Positions 3,652-54,108 of a DNA stretch of 64,000 nt are shown here, one piece after another. Location: assembly GCA_028688325.1 (NCBI GenBank), contig JAQTYI010000002.1:9395-73394 (forward strand), read 5' to 3'. Within the stretch, counting starts at the first letter, position 1; each line of letters starts with the position of its first letter. Both the position numbers and the translations under genes were made by a program. The notes beneath the pieces are model-generated. The model made no database searches. It was not told the DNA's origin and was given only the letters and a program-made list of their open reading frames with translations. The DNA comes from Candidatus Portnoybacteria bacterium (GTDB taxonomy: Bacteria; Patescibacteriota; Minisyncoccia; Portnoybacterales; GWB1-42-6).

Positions 3652-4797
3652 ATGAAAGCGAAAAATTTGATTTTTTGGCTGATTGTTTTGTCTGTTTTTA
3701 TTGCGACCGCATCTTGGGCCGCAGCACTCAATCCCCTGGGAGGATTCGGGCCGCGCAAGGCCATGCCTGCGGGCATTGCCGTGGCGGATGATCTGGCGGC
3801 ATTTTATTACAATCCGGCGCTGCTGCTGAAAGCGGGAAATTTCGCGCAGGCGGGACTGGAAGGCATGAGAGCGAACTTTGTTTACAAGAACGCGGCCGGC
3901 CGCGAATATAACGCCAAAACAGGCAATTATCTCACGCCTTCAATCGGAGTCAATTATCGGATAAACGACAAGCTGGCAGCGGGTCTGGGCATTTACACGC
4001 CCTACGGCTTTGGCGCGGATTTCAAAGACGAGCTGGGTCTTTATTCAAAAATGTCTCTGACCAATCTGGCGCCGGCCGTTGCTTACAAGGTATCGGATAA
4101 ATTGACGCTCGGCCTTTCAACAAAAGCAGGTCTCGGCCAGATAGAGCAAAGCCAGCCGACCGCTTCCGGCCGTCTAGATAGCAGATCGGACGGCTACGGC
4201 TACTCCGCGCAAGTCGGCTTGCTGTGGGAAGCAGCCGACTGGCTGCGATTCGGCCTGACCTATCAGACCAAAACTAAGGTTATGCTGGACGGCAATGCTA
4301 AATATGTGGATACCGGCGCCAGCGACACCTATACGGGAGAATTTTACTTTCCCGGCTATTACGGCTTTGGAGTGGGCATGGAATTCGGCAATCTGCTGAT
4401 CGCAGCCGATGTTATGCGCTTTGATTATTCGTCCACCGACACGGCGCTCACCAACTACCGCCACTGGCCGCAAGGCGTCCAGGCGCTTCATTGGGAAAAC
4501 AACACCTTCTGGGGTGTCGGCGCGGAATATAAATTCAGAAATGTCTGGCGTCTGCGCGGCGGGCTGGTCTACCAGGACGCGGTAATTCCCGACAGCACCA
4601 TCAATGCTTCGGGGCCCGACATGAATGGTTATTCAGCCGGTCTGGGCCTGGGGTATCGCGGCCAAAACATCAATATGGATATAAATTATATCCATATTTG
4701 GGGCCCGGAAAGAACGGTCCAGGGTACCTATTTTGGCGCCGGCCGCTACTCGGCCGACATCAACATCATCTCAACGGCAATAAGCTGGCGATGGTGA
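3652..4797 (+). CDS. FadL/TodX/OmpP1-family outer-membrane beta-barrel transporter
   Basis: Signal peptide MKAKNLIFWLIVLSVFIATASWAA. FadL-type N-terminal hatch (AAFYYNPA), many G/Y-rich beta strands, and a C-terminal aromatic residue (…ISWRW). Confidence 0.75.
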   Translation: MKAKNLIFWLIVLSVFIATASWAAALNPLGGFGPRKAMPAGIAVADDLAAFYYNPALLLKAGNFAQAGLEGMRANFVYKNAAGREYNAKTGNYLTPSIGVNYRINDKLAAGLGIYTPYGFGADFKDELGLYSKMSLTNLAPAVAYKVSDKLTLGLSTKAGLGQIEQSQPTASGRLDSRSDGYGYSAQVGLLWEAADWLRFGLTYQTKTKVMLDGNAKYVDTGASDTYTGEFYFPGYYGFGVGMEFGNLLIAADVMRFDYSSTDTALTNYRHWPQGVQALHWENNTFWGVGAEYKFRNVWRLRGGLVYQDAVIPDSTINASGPDMNGYSAGLGLGYRGQNINMDINYIHIWGPERTVQGTYFGAGRYSADINIISTAISWRW

Positions 4798-8064: not shown

Positions 8065-8781
8065 CTAACCCCGGCAAACCAAATAAGAAGCCACCATCGC
8101 CGCGGTCTCGGCGCGCAAAGTCAGTTTTCCCAGCGAAATTAGCTTAACCCCCGCTCCTCTGGCCGCGCCGATTTCCTCTCCGCTCCATCCGCCTTCCGGG
8201 CCGATAAAAATTCCGACTTGCTCTTTTTCCTGTTGCACCAAATTATTGATGTCAGACATCAATAATTTGGTGCCGGACGCATCAAATAATATGTTTGCCG
8301 TGTTTTCTTTTGCGCCAGCCAGCGCATCGTTGAAACTTATTGCTTCCCGCAAAACCGGAATTATTCCCCGGCCGGATTGTTCCGCCGCTTCTTTGATGAT
8401 TTTTTTCAGCCGGTCATATTTCAAACCTGTTTTAACCGTGCATCGCGATATCACGGGCACTATCTCGCTTACGCCGGCTTCCACGGCCTTCTGGACAACC
8501 AATTCAAAATTTTCCCGCTTTAAAACCGCGCAATACAAGATTACTTGCCTTTCCGGTTCATTCTCATTTTCTTTTACTTCCAAGATTTCCACCTCAACAA
8601 AATCTTTGCCGTATTGTGCAATTTTCGCTGACGCCTCTTTTCCTTGTCCGTTGACTAAAATAATTTCTTCACCTGCGCCCAGGCGCAAAACATTTTTCAC
8701 CTGATGCAAAAAATCCCCGTCGGAAATTCGCAGGGTTTTTTGCGCAAGATCAAAATCGCCGAAGAATCTGTTCAATCTCAT
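8065..8781 (-). CDS. rsmE: 16S rRNA m3U1498 methyltransferase RsmE
   Basis: 238 aa with an RsmE PUA-like N-terminus and a C-terminal SPOUT fold (GPEGGWSGEEI). Confidence 0.85.
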   Translation of the reverse strand: MRLNRFFGDFDLAQKTLRISDGDFLHQVKNVLRLGAGEEIILVNGQGKEASAKIAQYGKDFVEVEILEVKENENEPERQVILYCAVLKRENFELVVQKAVEAGVSEIVPVISRCTVKTGLKYDRLKKIIKEAAEQSGRGIIPVLREAISFNDALAGAKENTANILFDASGTKLLMSDINNLVQQEKEQVGIFIGPEGGWSGEEIGAARGAGVKLISLGKLTLRAETAAMVASYLVCRG

Positions 8782-8819: not shown

Positions 8820-9848
8820 TTACAAGTATTTTTTATTTATTTCCTTCACAATATCATATCCGTTGCAATGCTTCAACATTCCCGAATATGACTGTAAACT
8901 CTGGCCAAACGACTCCTCCAATATTAATCCGTCCTGCCAATTATTATATTTGTTTTTAATATTTTTAAACATTCTCCTTCTGGTTTTAGTCCGCAAAATT
9001 CTATAATCAGGAAAATTGACCAAACCCAAAAAATCCACCCCCGAAGCCAATGTTTTAATAAAAATTTTATCCGGATGCAATTCTAATTTTAGCCCTCGTC
9101 GCAAAAATTGCCGTATCGGCTCAATTTGTTGCTCCAAGCGTTTTTTGTCATCAGAAAAAAACACGAAATCGTCCGCGTACCGTATATATCGTTTATCTTT
9201 CAATTTATGCTTGGCAAACTGATCAAATTTATTCATGTAAATATTCACAAATAATTGCGAGGTGAGATTGCCAAGCGGCAAACCAATGCTCATCCCCTTT
9301 TCTGATGGAAAACTATCTACCACTCCTTCCAGCAGCCAAATAATATTCTCATCCGGAATATACTCTTTTAATATTTTGACTAAAATTTTGTGGTCAATAT
9401 TGGCAAAGAATTTTCTGATGTCACATTTCAAAACCCAGCATGTTTTTGTGTTATTTTTACTCACCTTCCAGACAAATTCCCGAAACCTGTTAACGACTTT
9501 ATGTGTTCCTTTCTTCAGTCGGCACGAATATGAATCGACAATAAAGGTTTTATCAAAAAACGGATATAAAATTCTGTAAATCGCGTGGTGAAGCAATCGG
9601 TCACGGACGCCCGCCTTATGAATGTTCCTGGGCTTAGGATCATTGATTTTAAACGCTTGATACCCGCCGTGCTTATAGGTATGATTAATAAGGTCGTTGT
9701 GGAGCGAAAAAATATTGTCCATTAAACGCATAGAAAATTCTTGAACATCTTTTCGCTGTTTTTTACCCTTCAAAAATTCCTTCCATGCTTCCAGCAAATT
9801 TTCAATGTTAATTATATCTTCAAATTTATGGACCAATTGAATTTTCAT
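8820..9848 (-). CDS. DGR-type reverse transcriptase
   Basis: 342-aa RT with YADD catalytic motif (IRYADDFVFF). DGR-diagnostic motif 4 reads IGLPLGNLTSQLFVNIYMN. No maturase or endonuclease domains. Confidence 0.85.
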   Translation of the reverse strand: MKIQLVHKFEDIINIENLLEAWKEFLKGKKQRKDVQEFSMRLMDNIFSLHNDLINHTYKHGGYQAFKINDPKPRNIHKAGVRDRLLHHAIYRILYPFFDKTFIVDSYSCRLKKGTHKVVNRFREFVWKVSKNNTKTCWVLKCDIRKFFANIDHKILVKILKEYIPDENIIWLLEGVVDSFPSEKGMSIGLPLGNLTSQLFVNIYMNKFDQFAKHKLKDKRYIRYADDFVFFSDDKKRLEQQIEPIRQFLRRGLKLELHPDKIFIKTLASGVDFLGLVNFPDYRILRTKTRRRMFKNIKNKYNNWQDGLILEESFGQSLQSYSGMLKHCNGYDIVKEINKKYL

Positions 9849-9942
9849 AAAAATTCGGCTTTTAACGCCCCCCCCCCAGACCCTTCCTTCACTGCTTCAG
9901 AAAGTAAAAATTCTTTACCTTTTATGGTACGGTTATTATCTG

Positions 9943-10227
9943 GTGTTGCCAAAAACCCATCGCCACACTTTGGGACAAAAAATAGATAATTTATTGGTAG
10001 AAATTATTGAAGCAATTGCCATTGCTATTTTCTTGAAACCCGAGGAAAAAATATCGTATGTCAGAATAGCAATCAGAAAAACTGACACTTTAAAAATTTT
10101 TCTAATGATACTTTGGGAAACTAAATCTTTGGATAATAAAAAATACATTGCTCTTTCGGAAAAATTAAACGAGGTTGGCAGAATGCTCGGCGGTTGGAAC
10201 GGACAACTTTCAAAACCCATAAAATAA
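9943..10227 (+). CDS. avd: Avd-like accessory variability determinant (four-helix-bundle, 23S-rRNA-IVS protein family)
   Basis: 94 aa that aligns with the C-terminal three helices of the in-window paralog at 52721-53083 (FLRIT/YVRIA; LETQIIIAKDL/LKIFLMILWETKSL; EVQKML/EVGRML). It appears N-terminally short and lies on the strand opposite the RT. Confidence 0.55.
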   Translation: MLPKTHRHTLGQKIDNLLVEIIEAIAIAIFLKPEEKISYVRIAIRKTDTLKIFLMILWETKSLDNKKYIALSEKLNEVGRMLGGWNGQLSKPIK

Positions 10228-10266
10228 AACTCTCCCGGCAAGCAGCCAGGAGAGAAATGAAAAGAG

Positions 10267-10397
10267 TTGCGCAACCCGCAGACGGATTGTCGGCGTTCCA
10301 ATCGTTGTCAAGCCAGTTGTAGTTCCAGTTCCACTCGCCATCGTCGTTGCGATAGAGATAGAGCACATTGCGGTTGCCGTCCGGGTTGCGAAGAATT
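10267..10397 (-). repeat. DGR template repeat (TR)
   Basis: 131 bp matching 10799-10929 except at 15 positions. All 15 are T on the plus strand, i.e. A on the coding minus strand, in this copy. Confidence 0.85.
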
Positions 10398-10787
10398 GTA
10401 TAGAATGCCTTCTATTCCACCACCCATTGAATTCTCTTTGGGTTGAATTTTATTCGACATCTCATTCAGCAGAATGACCTACTGGGTTAATGCCATAGCA
10501 TCTTACACCAAGTATCTTCATTTTTTGAAGTTTCTGCATACACCACTCTATCCGAAACCATAGTCGCGGATATTCTCAATGTATGGATACTGGTTTCGAC
10601 TGCGAGAAACCTTAATCGCTCGCACATTCATCTACTTCCATTCATATTTTAGCATAAAAAAAGACCCCATGCATTTTGTTGCAGGAGGTCTGGAAATGTA
10701 TTCGCACATTTCGAAAGCGTTGCGGAAAAATTTCCGCGCTCCAAGGACAAAGAACAAAGGATTCAAAAGATCCCAGATTCAAATGCC

Positions 10788-11474
10788 CTATGACTGACTT
10801 GCGCAACCCGCAGACGGACCGTCGGCGTTCCAAGCGATGCCAAGCCAGTAGTAGCGCCAGTGCCACTCGCCATCGTCGTAGCGATAGAGACAGAGCACAT
10901 CGCGGTCGCCGCCCGGGTAGCGAAGAATTTGGCCGAAGAAATCCAGGTAGGAGATTTTGAAATTCCGATAAAACCACTCGAGAATACTGTTTTCCTTGTT
11001 GGCCTGGTAATCAAGCCATAAAGCGAGGAAAACATTGCCTCCGAAGCGGATGAAGTCGGGTTTTTCTTCTTTCAGGCGGCGGAGCTTTTCTTCGCCCTTG
11101 ATTGACTTCTCGTCTGCCCGAAGGCAAGTTTCAAAAACAAACCTGGCAAGCTCAATTTCTGAGAGAGCCAATGAACGAGGATCAATGTCTTCCTCGCCAG
11201 TTAACCCGTCGCCGTCAATCGGACCTTTCCAGGTTGCCCAACCCTTGCCGAGAAATTCGGCGGGATTGAAGGATTGGGTCAGAACGGATTTCGGATCGCC
11301 GATGATGAAACGGCCGCCATTCTTAAGGAAAGCGGTGAAACGCTTGCCGAATTCCTCCGGTGAAAGATTGATAACATTTTTTTGAAGACGATCTCCATCA
11401 ATTTCGTCCCAACTAACTTGCGTCCCGACACGGGCCGCGACCTCCAGAGCTTGACCGCGAGAAACTGTTTTCAT
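10788..11474 (-). CDS. DGR target protein with C-terminal C-type-lectin/FGE-like variable domain
   Basis: The VR occupies the last ~44 codons. Likely start MKTVSRGQ at 11474, with GGAGAA 5 nt upstream. The annotated longer ORF begins at 11540. Confidence 0.7.
10799..10929 (-). repeat. DGR variable repeat (VR) within the target-gene 3' end
   Basis: It differs from the TR only where the TR has A (A-to-N changes). It encodes …[35 protein letters not shown]. Confidence 0.85.
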
Positions 11475-11764
11475 GGCTATTCTCCTTTTCTGAATTTGCG
11501 CTTTAACCATATTTAATGGCTCTACGCATGTTTGGCTCACCCCTCATCCCGCCCCATGCGGAACTCCAAGATTGCCGTTATTTGCTTTAAATACGCTGTT
11601 TTTAATGTACTTTATTAATATACACCTTAATAAGATTCTTGTCAAGTCGAGGTGCGGATTATACACAAATAAAACACCCCGTAAAATGCAGGGTATTTTA
11701 TTTGAGATTGAGCCTACAATAAGCGACTCTATCTCATTAAATTATCGTGGACGAAATTTACATA

Positions 11765-49394: not shown

Positions 49395-49976
49395 CTATAT
49401 AGTCATGATCTCTTTCTCTTTTCCCCCGCCCATCTCTTCAATCTTCTTGTTATATTCATCTATCATTTTCTGCAATTCTTCCTTGCCGCGGAATTTATCA
49501 TCCTCGCGGATCGCTCCGGCGCGCTCTCCGTCCTGCAGTTCTTTCCAGACCTTCTCGCGGGCGTTGCGCACTGCCTGCTTGGCGGTCTCCATTTTTTGCT
49601 TCAGATTGCGCACCAATTCCTTGCGTGTCTCTTCGGTCAGCTGAGGAATAGCCACTCTGATGATATCGCCGGTACTGGAAACGGAAAGCCCCGAGCGGGA
49701 ACCGCTGATGGCTTTTTCAATCTCTTTGTTGATAGTCTTATCCCATGGCTGAACCGTCAAAAGGCGCGGCTCGGGCGCGTTGATAACTGCCAATTCGCGC
49801 AATTGCGAACGGCTGCCGTAGCATTCAACTTCCACCGTCTCAATTAAAGCCGGTGTGGCTCGGCCCGTGCGCAAAGTGCCCATTTCTTCCTTGAAATGGA
49901 CCATTGTTTTTTCGAGTTCCGGTTTTATTCTGTTGATGATTTCTTTATACATTTTTTGCTTTTGAGACATATTCAA
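49395..49976 (-). CDS. frr: Ribosome recycling factor
   Basis: Full-length RRF collinearity. Confidence 0.95.
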   Translation of the reverse strand: MNMSQKQKMYKEIINRIKPELEKTMVHFKEEMGTLRTGRATPALIETVEVECYGSRSQLRELAVINAPEPRLLTVQPWDKTINKEIEKAISGSRSGLSVSSTGDIIRVAIPQLTEETRKELVRNLKQKMETAKQAVRNAREKVWKELQDGERAGAIREDDKFRGKEELQKMIDEYNKKIEEMGGGKEKEIMTI

Positions 49977-50712
49977 TTATTTTATCCCAATCCAAATTGC
50001 TTTTTGAATAAAATAATTCGACTATATCTTCTGTCATCTCGTTTATTTTTTTAATATATAAATCCTTAAATGTCTCGTCTCGTTTTTTTGCCTCTTTATC
50101 AAGAGGTTGAACTATTTTTTTATATAATTCGTTATCGCCAGAAATTAACTCCCAAAATTTTTGACCGCAAATTTTATAATAACTAAGGGCAGGATCTTTA
50201 CTAACCTTATGAGGACTGTTGTCCCTTCCATACATACATCCATTAACGGCAATAATTGTTTTTTTGTCTGCGCCCACACGAATCTCTTTTTTTGCTAATT
50301 TAAAATTTCTTCTCATTATATTAACTTGGTCGCTATTGCCCCAATTTGGCCCAGATTTAATACCAACAATATAAAATTTATTTTCTCTTTCAAAAATTAA
50401 ATCAATACTTTTATATTTTCCTTCTTCTGCTTTTTTACCATTAAATATCTGGCGGCAAATATGGATCGCAAGATTTTCCATAAGGTCTCCGAATATGGTT
50501 TCTTCCTGAGATGACAAAAAGGCATCCAGAATAGCTTTTGCCAAATCACCCGCGGTCTCAATATTTTTTGCTTTAAAAAGATAGGGATTTTTTCTCGCAA
50601 ATATACTTGATAAATTAGCTGATTCCAGACGATCTAGCCTGATTTTATAAAATGGCCGTATAATATCAAGGGCAATAAAAGAATTTAATTTATTGTAATC
50701 AATTTTTTTCAT
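49945..50712 (-). CDS. Putative type II restriction endonuclease
   Basis: 255-aa AT-rich gene overlapping by 4 nt the stop of the adjacent DNA methyltransferase. Confidence 0.45.
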   Translation of the reverse strand: MKKIDYNKLNSFIALDIIRPFYKIRLDRLESANLSSIFARKNPYLFKAKNIETAGDLAKAILDAFLSSQEETIFGDLMENLAIHICRQIFNGKKAEEGKYKSIDLIFERENKFYIVGIKSGPNWGNSDQVNIMRRNFKLAKKEIRVGADKKTIIAVNGCMYGRDNSPHKVSKDPALSYYKICGQKFWELISGDNELYKKIVQPLDKEAKKRDETFKDLYIKKINEMTEDIVELFYSKSNLDWDKIIEYVSKAKNV

Positions 50713-51602
50713 AATTTATTTCTGTTTAATTCATTAAGGTTTTGAATTGCAAGATTATAATATTCCTCTTTAATTTCAATCCCGATTGAATTGCGGTCTA
50801 ATTGAAAAGCGGCAACTGATGTTGTGCCAGAGCCCAAAAAAGGGTCCAATACTGTATCACCCGGTTTAGTAAATAGTTTAATAAACCAGGATGGGAGTTC
50901 TCTTGGAAATACTGCGCTATGCTCTTTATTTGATGTTTCGGTAGCCATAGTTAAAACATTTGTAGGATATGCCATATCTCTGCCTACCCATTTTGAAACA
51001 TTTTTACCAAAACCGCTTCCCACCCTTGAATTATCTCGTTTTTTATCTGTCTCGCTAAGATTTTTAAGCCGAGTTTTAGCCCAGTCGCCCATAGGAACCA
51101 TCACTCCGTCTTGATACATGTTAAAATCTTTTTGTTTATTAAATTGCAATAAACGCTCCCAGGCATCACGAAATCTATTTGGCCACTTTCCTGGAAAACA
51201 ATTTTTTTTATGCCATATAAATTCTTCCGTCCAAAGCCAACCTTGCTTCCTCATTTCCATTATCAATTCCATTACATATGTATGCCTTTCGCTTTCAACA
51301 ACTTTTTCCTTAATATTTAAAATAAAAGTCCCCTTTGGGCTTAAAACGCGTAAAAATTCCTCTGTTTTTGGTAGAAACCATTTTACATAATCATCAGGAT
51401 TGATACCCCCGTAGGTGCCTTTTCTTTGGTCGGCATACGGTGGAGATGTAATTATTAAATCAATACTACCGTCAGAAAAACTTTTCAATGTTTTATAACA
51501 ATCACCAAGCACTATATCAGCCCTAATTTTTTCTTTAAGGTTTTGGGTAAATAAATTTAATTTTTCTACGGTTTTAATTGTCATAGTCATTTCCTTAATC
51601 AA
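50709..51602 (-). CDS. DNA methyltransferase (beta-class N4-cytosine/N6-adenine, SPPY)
   Basis: Motif IV DLIITSPPYA in the N-terminus and motif I DPFLGSGTT in the C-terminus (circularly permuted beta-class arrangement). Confidence 0.8.
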   Translation of the reverse strand: MIKEMTMTIKTVEKLNLFTQNLKEKIRADIVLGDCYKTLKSFSDGSIDLIITSPPYADQRKGTYGGINPDDYVKWFLPKTEEFLRVLSPKGTFILNIKEKVVESERHTYVMELIMEMRKQGWLWTEEFIWHKKNCFPGKWPNRFRDAWERLLQFNKQKDFNMYQDGVMVPMGDWAKTRLKNLSETDKKRDNSRVGSGFGKNVSKWVGRDMAYPTNVLTMATETSNKEHSAVFPRELPSWFIKLFTKPGDTVLDPFLGSGTTSVAAFQLDRNSIGIEIKEEYYNLAIQNLNELNRNKL

Positions 51603-52720: not shown

Positions 52721-53083
52721 TTAGCTGTTAGGAAATTCTAACTTTTTAATTATCGTTGACAGCATTTTTTGAACCTCATCAAATAAAATATCGGCTCTTG
52801 AAAAATCTAATTTTATGAATAAATCTTTAGCTATAATAATTTGTGTTTCCAGCTCTGCCACAGAACCGTCTGTTATTCTTAAAAATTGCACAAAATCTTT
52901 TTTTGTTTTTCTCTTCTTACCTTCTGCTATGTTTGACGGGATAGAAACGGCTGCTCGCCTCATCTGACTTGTTAAACCATATAACTCTGAACTGGGAAAA
53001 AGCCCGGTAATTTTATAGGTTTCTTTTACTAATCCTATCGCTTTCTGCCAAACTATCAGTTGTTTAAACGATTCGATATACAT
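52721..53083 (-). CDS. Four-helix-bundle protein, 23S-rRNA-IVS protein family (Avd paralog)
   Basis: 120 aa with the TIGR02436-like pattern (SQMRRAAVSIPSNIAEG … FLRITDGSVAELETQIIIAKDL). Flanked by 17-bp inverted repeats. Confidence 0.75.
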   Translation of the reverse strand: MYIESFKQLIVWQKAIGLVKETYKITGLFPSSELYGLTSQMRRAAVSIPSNIAEGKKRKTKKDFVQFLRITDGSVAELETQIIIAKDLFIKLDFSRADILFDEVQKMLSTIIKKLEFPNS

Positions 53084-53118: not shown

Positions 53119-54108
53119 CTAAATTTTCGTCATTAAAACCTCCAGCGCCAGCCGCGCGTTAAAGCTCGGATTGTGCAAAATCGACTGGGTTTTTTGTATC
53201 TCGCGGCATATGCTAAGCAAATTGCCCGGGTGATATCCGCCTGCGGAAGTTCCACTCGTCCGACCGCTAACAGCCAGATCGGCGCAACCGCTGATTTCTA
53301 AAATTCTGTCCCTGAGACACAACACCCACTGATCCAGCGTTTCCCGCGCTTCAACGGTATTCTGTGCTAACTTTGCGGCCTGTTCCAAGCGCCAAACCAA
53401 CGGCGCTTTCAATATTTTTTCAAAAATTTCTATACTCCTTTCCTGCTCCGCCAGGCGTTCCGGCTCCCGTAATAATTGGATGGCGAGTCCCGGCCTGCCG
53501 GCGGATAATTTTATAGCCCGCTTGAAATCCGCTTCTTTTTTTGACAGACCTCCGAGCTTGGCCGACATTTCAATTTCGGGCACCGGCAAAAATTTTATCA
53601 GTTGGCAGCGCGAAACGATTGTCGGCAAGGCCGCCTGCCAAGATGAGCTTATCAAAATTATCAAACTGCGCGGGCTCGGCTCTTCCAGCGTCTTTAATAA
53701 AGCATTCGTTGCCTCGCCGCTTAAAGCCGCCGCCTCTTCGATTATGGCAATTTTATGCGAAGCGCCGTAAGCGGATAAACTTAACTTATGCTGCAAGGCG
53801 CGAATTTCGGCAATGCCGATTTCCTTATTTTTTAAAATATCATCTTTATCCGTTTGCTTGGCCGACAAAATAAGCATATCCGGATTTTGACCGCGCTCAA
53901 CCGACAAACACGATTTGCATTTGCCACAAGGTTCGGTAGGGCTTGTCCTGAGCTTTGTCGAAGGACAAAAAAGCCACTTAGCAAATTCCAGCGCGGTTGT
54001 TAGCTTGCCGACCTGCGCCGAGCCGACGAAAAAATAAGCATGCGCCAATCTATCCTGCTTGGCGGATCCGGTCAAAAAATCCCAAATTCGCTGATGGCCG
54101 ATAAGCAT
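53119..54108 (-). CDS. holB: DNA polymerase III subunit delta'
   Basis: AAA+ clamp-loader fold with degenerate P-loop GSAQVGKLT, CxxC zinc module, SRC-like motif. Confidence 0.8.
   Translation of the reverse strand: MLIGHQRIWDFLTGSAKQDRLAHAYFFVGSAQVGKLTTALEFAKWLFCPSTKLRTSPTEPCGKCKSCLSVERGQNPDMLILSAKQTDKDDILKNKEIGIAEIRALQHKLSLSAYGASHKIAIIEEAAALSGEATNALLKTLEEPSPRSLIILISSSWQAALPTIVSRCQLIKFLPVPEIEMSAKLGGLSKKEADFKRAIKLSAGRPGLAIQLLREPERLAEQERSIEIFEKILKAPLVWRLEQAAKLAQNTVEARETLDQWVLCLRDRILEISGCADLAVSGRTSGTSAGGYHPGNLLSICREIQKTQSILHNPSFNARLALEVLMTKI

Follow-up and report, generated by a model that had tools for sequence, protein, structure and literature searches.

A one-base frame offset at a cytosine run in the inverted avd gene of a Candidatus Portnoybacteria diversity-generating retroelement: a candidate on/off switch and a putative leader RNA

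Diversity-generating retroelements (DGRs) are among the most abundant systems of accelerated evolution in the large candidate phyla radiation (CPR). To our knowledge, little is known about how their activity is regulated in these bacteria. In the Bordetella model, mutagenesis by the DGR requires the accessory protein Avd. The element of Bordetella phage BPP-1 and its bRT-Avd-RNA particle (PDB 4dwl, 8ub7; Handa et al. 2018 NAR) serve as the reference; its order is mtd-avd-TR-brt, where TR is the template repeat, and transfer from TR to the variable repeat (VR) is adenine-specific. Stem-loops that putatively bind Avd, located just downstream of TR, together with a duplex that joins a sequence upstream of TR to one downstream of it, were reported in 207 of 278 DGRs, including those of CPR (Handa et al., bioRxiv 10.1101/2023.10.23.563531). 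In a published survey, 90% of the CPR DGR set belongs to architecture B3, "TR-(avd)-RT", in which avd lies on the reverse strand between TR and the reverse transcriptase (RT) gene (Wu et al. 2018, NAR 46:11, PMC5758913). Here we describe a DGR of this kind in a 64,000-nucleotide stretch of a Candidatus Portnoybacteria contig (JAQTYI010000002.1, positions 9,395 to 73,394, forward strand; hereafter the window). Its avd gene is interrupted by a run of ten cytosines, and the possible role of this run is the main subject of the present paper.

The locus is a complete DGR. The order in the window is RT, avd, TR and the target gene carrying VR. As the original prediction had stated, avd lies on the plus strand and all the other parts on the minus strand; mapping of the open reading frames (ORFs) and repeats bore this out. 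The RT gene (8820–9848, minus strand; ATG at 9848–9846) is intact and encodes 342 residues, including the motifs LGNLTSQ and YADD, which fit the DGR-type patterns (I/L)GxxxSQ and YxDD. It matched RVT_1 with 91.7 bits in the Pfam profile search; the nearest NCBIfam models scored below their cut-offs, in a comparison made without a DGR-specific RT profile. Two copies of a 134-nucleotide repeat, 88% identical to each other, are located at 10264–10397 and 10796–10929 on the minus strand. Because 15 of the 16 mismatches are at adenines (A-to-N) when the first copy is read in minus orientation, this copy is the TR. The second copy, VR, lies at the 3' end of the target gene (10788–11540, minus strand; 250 residues) and ends 8 nucleotides ahead of its stop codon. 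Pfam and NCBIfam searches with the target protein gave no match.

Two sets of related loci were compared with the window: 80 loci from GTDB species representatives, collected using an Avd alignment, and an independent set of Joint Genome Institute (JGI) metagenome contigs. The RT gene is on the strand opposite to avd in all 142 relatives retaining RT, 75 of 75 GTDB loci and 67 of 67 metagenome loci; in the former 75 it is immediately divergent from avd, and their RTs are 50–69% identical to that of the window. An adenine-biased TR/VR pair was detected in 64 related loci. In these, TR invariably occupies the minus strand and starts 2–44 nucleotides past the avd stop codon, and VR lies approximately 450–530 nucleotides beyond TR. 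The window locus likewise has a reverse-stranded avd with TR on one side and RT on the other, which is the B3 arrangement. The architecture had been called unusual at first sight; it is the known B3 layout (Wu et al. 2018, PMC5758913), and it is present in every relative examined. In other words, the element is an ordinary member of the CPR-type DGRs, and its inverted avd has already been catalogued. Since avd is on the opposite strand and between TR and RT, it needs a promoter of its own, which agrees with one of the options considered in the original prediction.

The avd ORF at 9943–10227 (plus strand, 94 residues) was confirmed, with GTG as the start codon. It scored 45.6 bits against the Pfam bAvd profile (PF22296, cut-off 40), covering only profile positions 21–104, and had been regarded as a truncated Avd lacking helix 1. 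However, its frame is open upstream as far as 9841 and encodes PPPQTLPSLLQKVKILYLLWYGYYLV ahead of GTG 9943. With this extension the score was 46.3 bits, and the match covered profile positions 6–104. The product scored 57.9 bits with NCBIfam DivGenRetAVD (NF033474), below the equivalog cut-off of 80, and 20.4 bits with PF05635; bAvd was the only profile above its cut-off. When the extended translation was used as the query, 1,914 relatives were found, the best of them 70–88% identical over 91–98% of the query, extension included. Comparison with related DGR loci, one of the checks proposed, showed avd kept in the same layout.

An AlphaFold model of 9880–10224 (predicted local distance difference test score, pLDDT, 91) has helices at residues 2–20, 25–50, 54–80 and 86–103. 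Helix 1 of this model is encoded at 9883–9939, wholly upstream of GTG 9943. The model fits Bordetella Avd (4dwl) and the Avd chains of 8ub7 with template modelling (TM) scores of 0.75–0.83 over 108–113 columns. A PDB sequence search with the Avd profile gave no significant match: the likeness emerged from the fold search. Structure prediction, also suggested as a check, thereby gave four helices with helix 1 present. Residues of helix 1 are kept across the 80 loci (K9, Y12 and W15 in 100%) while synonymous codons vary freely, which is, on this alignment, the signature of a translated protein. The avd body (9878–10227, plus strand; TAA stop at 10225–10227) encodes the full four-helix Avd domain, and the defect is a one-nucleotide offset at a homopolymer.

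It should be added that Avd is more conserved than RT across these loci (L001–L080): identity to the window proteins was 59–82% for Avd and 50–69% for RT. This is unusual, as avd genes have been reported to be poorly conserved.

The offset becomes clear from the 5' end of the gene. The aligned homologs begin MS(E/Q)LNFHK...PPP..LLPLLQK, and the corresponding start in the window is ATG 9828; from it the family start frame reads MDQLNFHKNSAFNAPPP, and the 5' segment of avd in this frame (9828–9867, plus strand) begins MDQLNFHKNSAFN. This ATG is inside the RT ORF: avd and RT overlap head-to-head by 21 nucleotides, and the avd His-7 codon (CAT, 9846–9848) and the RT ATG are each other's antisense. 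Of the 80 GTDB loci, 45 show a recognisable ATG-CAT overlap of this kind, 21 or 24 nucleotides long. The segment is followed by C10 (9868–9877, plus strand), which is G10 on the RT strand, 20–29 nucleotides upstream of the RT ATG; no other run of G or C in the 64-kb window exceeds 6. At C10 the frame of the avd body (9878–10227) is displaced by one base from that of ATG 9828, and a tract of C9 or C12 would restore the frame, giving an intact 132-residue Avd. The earlier suspicion that the sequenced avd lacks an intact ORF was correct in this sense. A search for a non-ATG start restoring helix 1 had also been proposed. No ATG, GTG or TTG occurs in the avd frame between the stop codon at 9838–9840 and GTG 9943, though helix 1 is encoded there. 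The NCBI annotation starts avd at ATT 9910 (P0001, 105 residues), which would remove half of helix 1. The poly-G on the other strand is unlikely to be the Shine-Dalgarno sequence of RT: the gap to the AUG is 13–19 nucleotides, and unrelated repeats replace the poly-G elsewhere.

A repeat is found at the same position in most members of the family. Poly-C of 6–14 (mode 9–10) is present in 67 of the 80 GTDB loci and, in the replication set, in 55 of 68 metagenome loci. Among the other GTDB loci, six have tetranucleotide repeats of 6–14 units, namely (GCCA/CAGC) x6–14, (ACGA) x9 and (CAAC) x7; L066 has the heptanucleotide (AGCAATC) x11 and L028 has (GA)6. The length of every repeat unit is not a multiple of 3. 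In 71 of 73 distinct repeat-bearing GTDB loci, an ATG lies within 70 nucleotides upstream with its frame open to the repeat. Only 28 of the 73 (38%), and 17 of 53 metagenome loci, have such an ATG in the frame of the avd body; approximately 62% of the 122 distinct repeat-bearing relatives are out of frame. For the GTDB loci with a single open upstream ATG, the three frame classes are 20:21:19. In 44 of 44 loci no stop interrupts the frame of the ATG ahead of the repeat, whereas the other two frames contain stops in 38 and 42 of the 44. Furthermore, an in-frame ATG is found in 13 of 18 loci without a repeat versus 46 of 122 with one (Fisher p = 0.009). On the basis of the open ATG frame, the in-frame ATG of the repeat-less loci and the frame classes, we argue that the upstream ATG is probably the authentic start of avd and that the repeat scrambles the frame. 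In L063, a run of N (an assembly gap, ~3950–4010) is located inside the (CAGC)n repeat of avd; it is consistent with a repeat that is hard to assemble or heterogeneous in the population.

The tract length differs among nearly identical sequences. The P0014 allele was found on ten contigs from different samples with identical Avd and flanks: seven have C9, two have C10, which is the in-frame length, and one has C11. The P0071 allele has C8 (in frame) in three cases and C9 in three, and the P0025 allele has C9 in three and C8 in one. L083 (C10) and L084 (C9) are identical over 1119 nucleotides downstream of the tract. When samples sharing an allele are compared, the differences that remain are clustered in VR and coincide with adenines of TR (10 of 10 and 13 of 15 cases), and the P0014 and P0071 alleles show such VR diversification; therefore, repeat-bearing DGRs of this family diversify. 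Outside the window, the same genome has a second B3-type DGR (L081:1947-4586; JAQTTM010000001.1, 282209–288547). Its avd (P0019), annotated with an internal TTG as the start, is likewise shifted by one base, at a C9 tract. The tract length of an independent Logan contig (L082) is equal to that of L081.

Two features of these cassettes were noted in passing. In the P0025 allele (L099–L102), the RT beside avd is a 38-residue remnant, and avd, poly-C (C9 or C8) and a target-like gene downstream persist; this cassette may be decaying or served in trans. Some records with CPR-type cassettes are labelled Methanosarcinales, Gammaproteobacteria, Bdellovibrionales, Bryobacterales or Planctomycetota, which is probably due to mis-binning or mislabelling.

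Several properties known from contingency loci based on simple sequence repeats (SSRs) were found here: the tract is in the 5' coding region, the unit is not a multiple of 3 and the tract is long enough to be unstable. Length polymorphism among near-identical contigs was seen for the alleles of three relatives (P0014, P0071 and P0025). We are modestly inclined to regard the avd repeat as a contingency-type, slipped-strand switch of Avd translation. Slipped-strand mispairing would change the tract length, and this length would decide if translation begun at the ATG arrives in the frame of Avd. The copy in the window (C10) might then represent an OFF phase, and loss of one C (C9) would turn it ON. 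Mutagenesis by the DGR would thereby be gated stochastically by the supply of Avd. Literature linking DGRs or avd to homopolymers, SSRs or phase variation was searched for and none was found; prior mention in Paul et al. 2017 (Nat Microbiol) is possible.

Several points weigh against a switch. The window allele was not found in any other sample: exact-protein look-ups with the window RT and P0001 gave no match, and a pattern scan of metagenome contigs for this allele with a variable tract did not find it. The lengths C8–C11 in short-read assemblies carry some error. The uniform frame classes relative to the upstream ATG are equally expected of a non-coding tract. A TTG is present two codons upstream of helix 1 in about half of the relatives, where Avd could start after the tract; TTG accounts for 36 of 68 Leu codons at this position, compared with ~20–35% at other Leu positions, an approximately two-fold enrichment. 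In one allele (P0014), an ATG occurs right after the tract, at the same site as the TTG.

The last three points are what would be expected if translation of Avd starts downstream of the repeat, at TTG or ATG of "LLP" in the relatives and, in the window, at a non-canonical codon, for example CTG 9892 or ATT 9910. In that case the repeat would be part of the 5' leader of avd (and of the 5' untranslated region of RT on the other strand), and changes in its length would be neutral or would do no more than adjust expression. Gene callers and NCBI also pick starts after the tract. Such a start is nevertheless unlikely. It does not account for the frame of the ATG, open up to the repeat in every one of the 44 loci while the others are closed in 38–42, nor for repeat units of which none is a multiple of 3, nor for the excess of in-frame upstream ATGs in the repeat-less loci. 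In at least 11 GTDB loci, and likewise in the window and in L081, an in-frame ATG and a canonical post-tract start are both lacking. A start at ATT 9910 in the window would cost half of helix 1, and the poly-C is unable to serve as a Shine-Dalgarno sequence. The out-of-frame state showed no association with a TTG after the tract, a result that does not discriminate between the explanations.

The frame might instead be corrected during expression, by RNA polymerase slipping along the C/G run or by the ribosome slipping +1 at CCC-C proline codons, so that some full-length Avd is made at any tract length in the DNA and the tract acts as an attenuator. Slippage on long homopolymers and at CCC-C sites is established, and the two DGRs of the genome share one register, with an extra base. 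This register is also the largest class in the pooled data (44 versus 31 and 30); the bias is not significant, however, and the tetra- and heptanucleotide repeats that replace poly-C in some relatives are not known slippage sites of polymerase or ribosome. This explanation has only a small chance of being correct. An error of sequencing or assembly at C10, with a true tract of C9 and an intact avd, is about equally improbable. Homopolymers are error-prone and one base would restore the 132-residue ORF from ATG 9828, but avd of the genome's second DGR is frame-shifted too, as reproduced in the independent Logan assembly, and the out-of-frame fraction among the 122 relatives, which come from many projects, is far above any plausible consensus error. 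It also tells against an error that the window has no other long G/C homopolymer. That avd is a decaying pseudogene in a dead or Avd-independent DGR, the "degenerate copy" of the original prediction, is very improbable: a canonical start is absent and TAA 10225 precedes the C-terminal tail (KQNSPxKxxGEK) of many homologs, but the avd body has no internal stop or further frameshift at 70–88% identity, its stop position is free in the family, about two-thirds of the relatives are equally out of frame, RT, TR, leader and hairpin are intact with VR diverged at 15 adenines, and the repeat-bearing alleles P0014 and P0071 diversify VR between samples.

The 3' flank of TR provides a further point of comparison with described DGRs. 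A stem-loop, CUCUCCUGGC-UGCUU-GCCGGGAGAG (10254→10230, minus strand), is followed by UUUUAUUUUA (10229→10220); the whole element (10220–10254) overlaps the avd stop codon. The original prediction had noticed a stem of 5–6 bp here. The stem exists, but it is longer, consisting of 10 bp with seven G-C pairs and one G.U on the minus strand and closing a 5-nucleotide loop, and it runs into a U-tract, the minus-strand sequence directly past the stem being TTTTATTTTA. A G+C-rich stem-loop followed by a U-tract on the transcribed strand is the form of a Rho-independent terminator, and this is the sole terminator-like site within 9600–11000. All relatives have the same element, AAAACAAAACTCTCCC-loop-GGGAGAGAAATGAAGAGAGTTGCG, with covarying stems. 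Depending on the relative, the avd stop codon is before, inside or after the hairpin; the hairpin is therefore a nucleic-acid signal and not a protein feature. Each of 54 distinct family hairpins abuts a minus-strand U-run. The 46 G.U pairs in these hairpins would be C.A mismatches on the plus strand, and the minus-strand fold is more stable in 44 of the 54. The stem-loop looks like an intrinsic terminator and/or a stem-loop of the Avd-binding type at the 3' end of a putative TR RNA. The proposal that a stem beside TR occupies the place of functional RNA elements in other DGRs is supported by the survey cited above (Handa et al., bioRxiv 10.1101/2023.10.23.563531).

Upstream of TR, a conserved and structured RNA leader of ~240 nucleotides (10398–10640, minus strand) is directly 5' of the repeat. 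Across the 64 loci it has 54 pairs, 47 of them with double changes; 96.8% of cells are paired, compared with 34–51% with slid partners, and the covariation score is 0.644, compared with 0.10–0.18. An Rfam search of 9700–11000, leader included, gave no match. Within the leader, AAAUGAAGA (10523→10515) forms base pairs with UCUUUUCAUUU, the TR 3' flank (10265→10255, minus strand), and compensatory changes in these two strands are seen across relatives. Matched leader/flank pairs are more complementary than permuted ones (z = −5.1; none of 500 permutations was as good). The flank is proposed to supply the 3' strand when a long-range duplex forms with the leader. Both kinds of element described in the survey, the stem-loop downstream of TR and the upstream/downstream duplex, are thus present in the window; this does not imply homology to the Bordetella elements.

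An extended −10 promoter-like box, TGCTAAAAT (10654→10646, minus strand), precedes the leader; the family consensus is TGnTAnAAT after a T-run. From its position and sequence, this box might mark the start of the TR RNA. It was not listed in the −35/−10 promoter scan. The features between this box and the hairpin (10254→10220) suggest a discrete TR RNA of ~415 nucleotides composed of leader, TR, duplex strand, hairpin and U-tract. If this RNA ends at the avd stop codon, the TR transcript need not cross avd in antisense. A transcript running from TR to RT antisense through avd had been expected originally; the terminator-like hairpin, promoter-like box and leader argue for a separate TR RNA instead, in which case RT would need its own promoter. 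The candidate RT promoter at 9952→9924, the one promoter-like site that the scan gave on the minus strand, was rejected: its 9 of 12 matches are no better than the shuffled expectation, and its −10 is seemingly unconserved in relatives. With this candidate having failed, read-through from the TR RNA into RT is possible, which speaks against separate transcripts. A function of antisense avd as a "spacer" RNA was also rejected, as synonymous codons vary along the avd body and the RNA features stop at the hairpin and U-tract.

The switch and the leader might be combined in a wider proposal, which we put forward tentatively and at slightly less than even confidence: in most DGRs of CPR/Patescibacteria, hypermutation may be phase-variable through the avd repeat, with only a changing subpopulation diversifying its target, and in the present family a previously undescribed leader of ~240 nucleotides may replace the long 3' spacer. 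If true, this would be a possibly new layer of control, in which a slippery, conserved repeat inside an accessory gene makes cells gamble on mutating at all. There are also practical consequences. Gene callers mis-annotate the avd genes of this family as truncated or with arbitrary starts, such as the ATT chosen by NCBI here, and DGR surveys may count frame-shifted elements as having no intact Avd. The covarying leader defines a compact DGR RNA of ~415 nucleotides for biochemical reconstitution of a non-Bordetella DGR. Both the length-polymorphic avd repeat, as a possible gate of hypermutation, and the family-specific leader RNA seem worth following up.

Other features of the window were as follows. 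A perfect palindrome of 19+19 nucleotides with a 1-nucleotide spacer, GCACCAAATTATTGATGTC/GACATCAATAATTTGGTGC, is located at 8235–8273, inside the ORF at 8065–8781 (minus strand) just downstream of the RT gene. A DNA methyltransferase-like ORF (50709–51602) and an ORF of 255 residues (49945–50712), both on the minus strand, are adjacent and, judged from their translations only, look like a restriction-modification pair. The ORF at 52721–53083 (minus strand, 120 residues), taken earlier for an Avd paralog, belongs instead to PF05635 (119 bits; 24.6 bits with bAvd, below the cut-off), the generic 23S rRNA-IVP family of four-helix proteins. It is away from any DGR, immediately downstream of a holB-like gene for the DNA polymerase III delta' subunit (53119–54108). 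Its product as a substitute Avd was rejected because of this different family and unrelated gene context.

When the locus is compared with known systems, the repeat has its closest counterparts in contingency loci. Poly-G in hmbR and hpuAB and tetranucleotide repeats in mod genes are known examples. As in Neisseria, Haemophilus and Campylobacter, the avd family has homopolymers of at least 8 or repeats of 4- or 7-nucleotide units in the 5' part of the coding region; the units are not divisible by 3, the length is polymorphic between near-identical strains and about one-third are in frame. The gated gene differs: it is an accessory factor of targeted hypermutation and not a surface or restriction-modification gene. 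The hosts also differ, being uncultured CPR bacteria in which reversible switching is putative. The B3 DGRs have the same order and orientation as the window and belong to the same host group, CPR/Patescibacteria, so that the architecture shows no difference; the head-to-head overlap, the repeat in avd and the leader RNA go unmentioned in the passages of the B3 description covered here (PMC5758913). The S23-like 23S rRNA-IVP proteins (PF05635; PDB 2gsc, 2rld) share the fold of the window Avd (TM ~0.8), whereas the profile preference is reversed: the ORF at 52721 prefers PF05635 and avd prefers bAvd. Finally, the BPP-1 element and the window have in common adenine-specific transfer from TR to VR, the four-helix fold of Avd (TM ~0.8), the stem-loop 3' of TR and the duplex across TR, the last two as predicted for many DGRs (bioRxiv 10.1101/2023.10.23.563531). 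The two Avd proteins are only ~16% identical in sequence, and in the window avd is inverted and overlaps RT head-to-head. In Bordetella, a long functional spacer 3' of TR runs into brt; in the window, in contrast, the large RNA structure is 5' of TR (~240 nucleotides), and the 3' part is only ~45 nucleotides long and ends in a U-tract.

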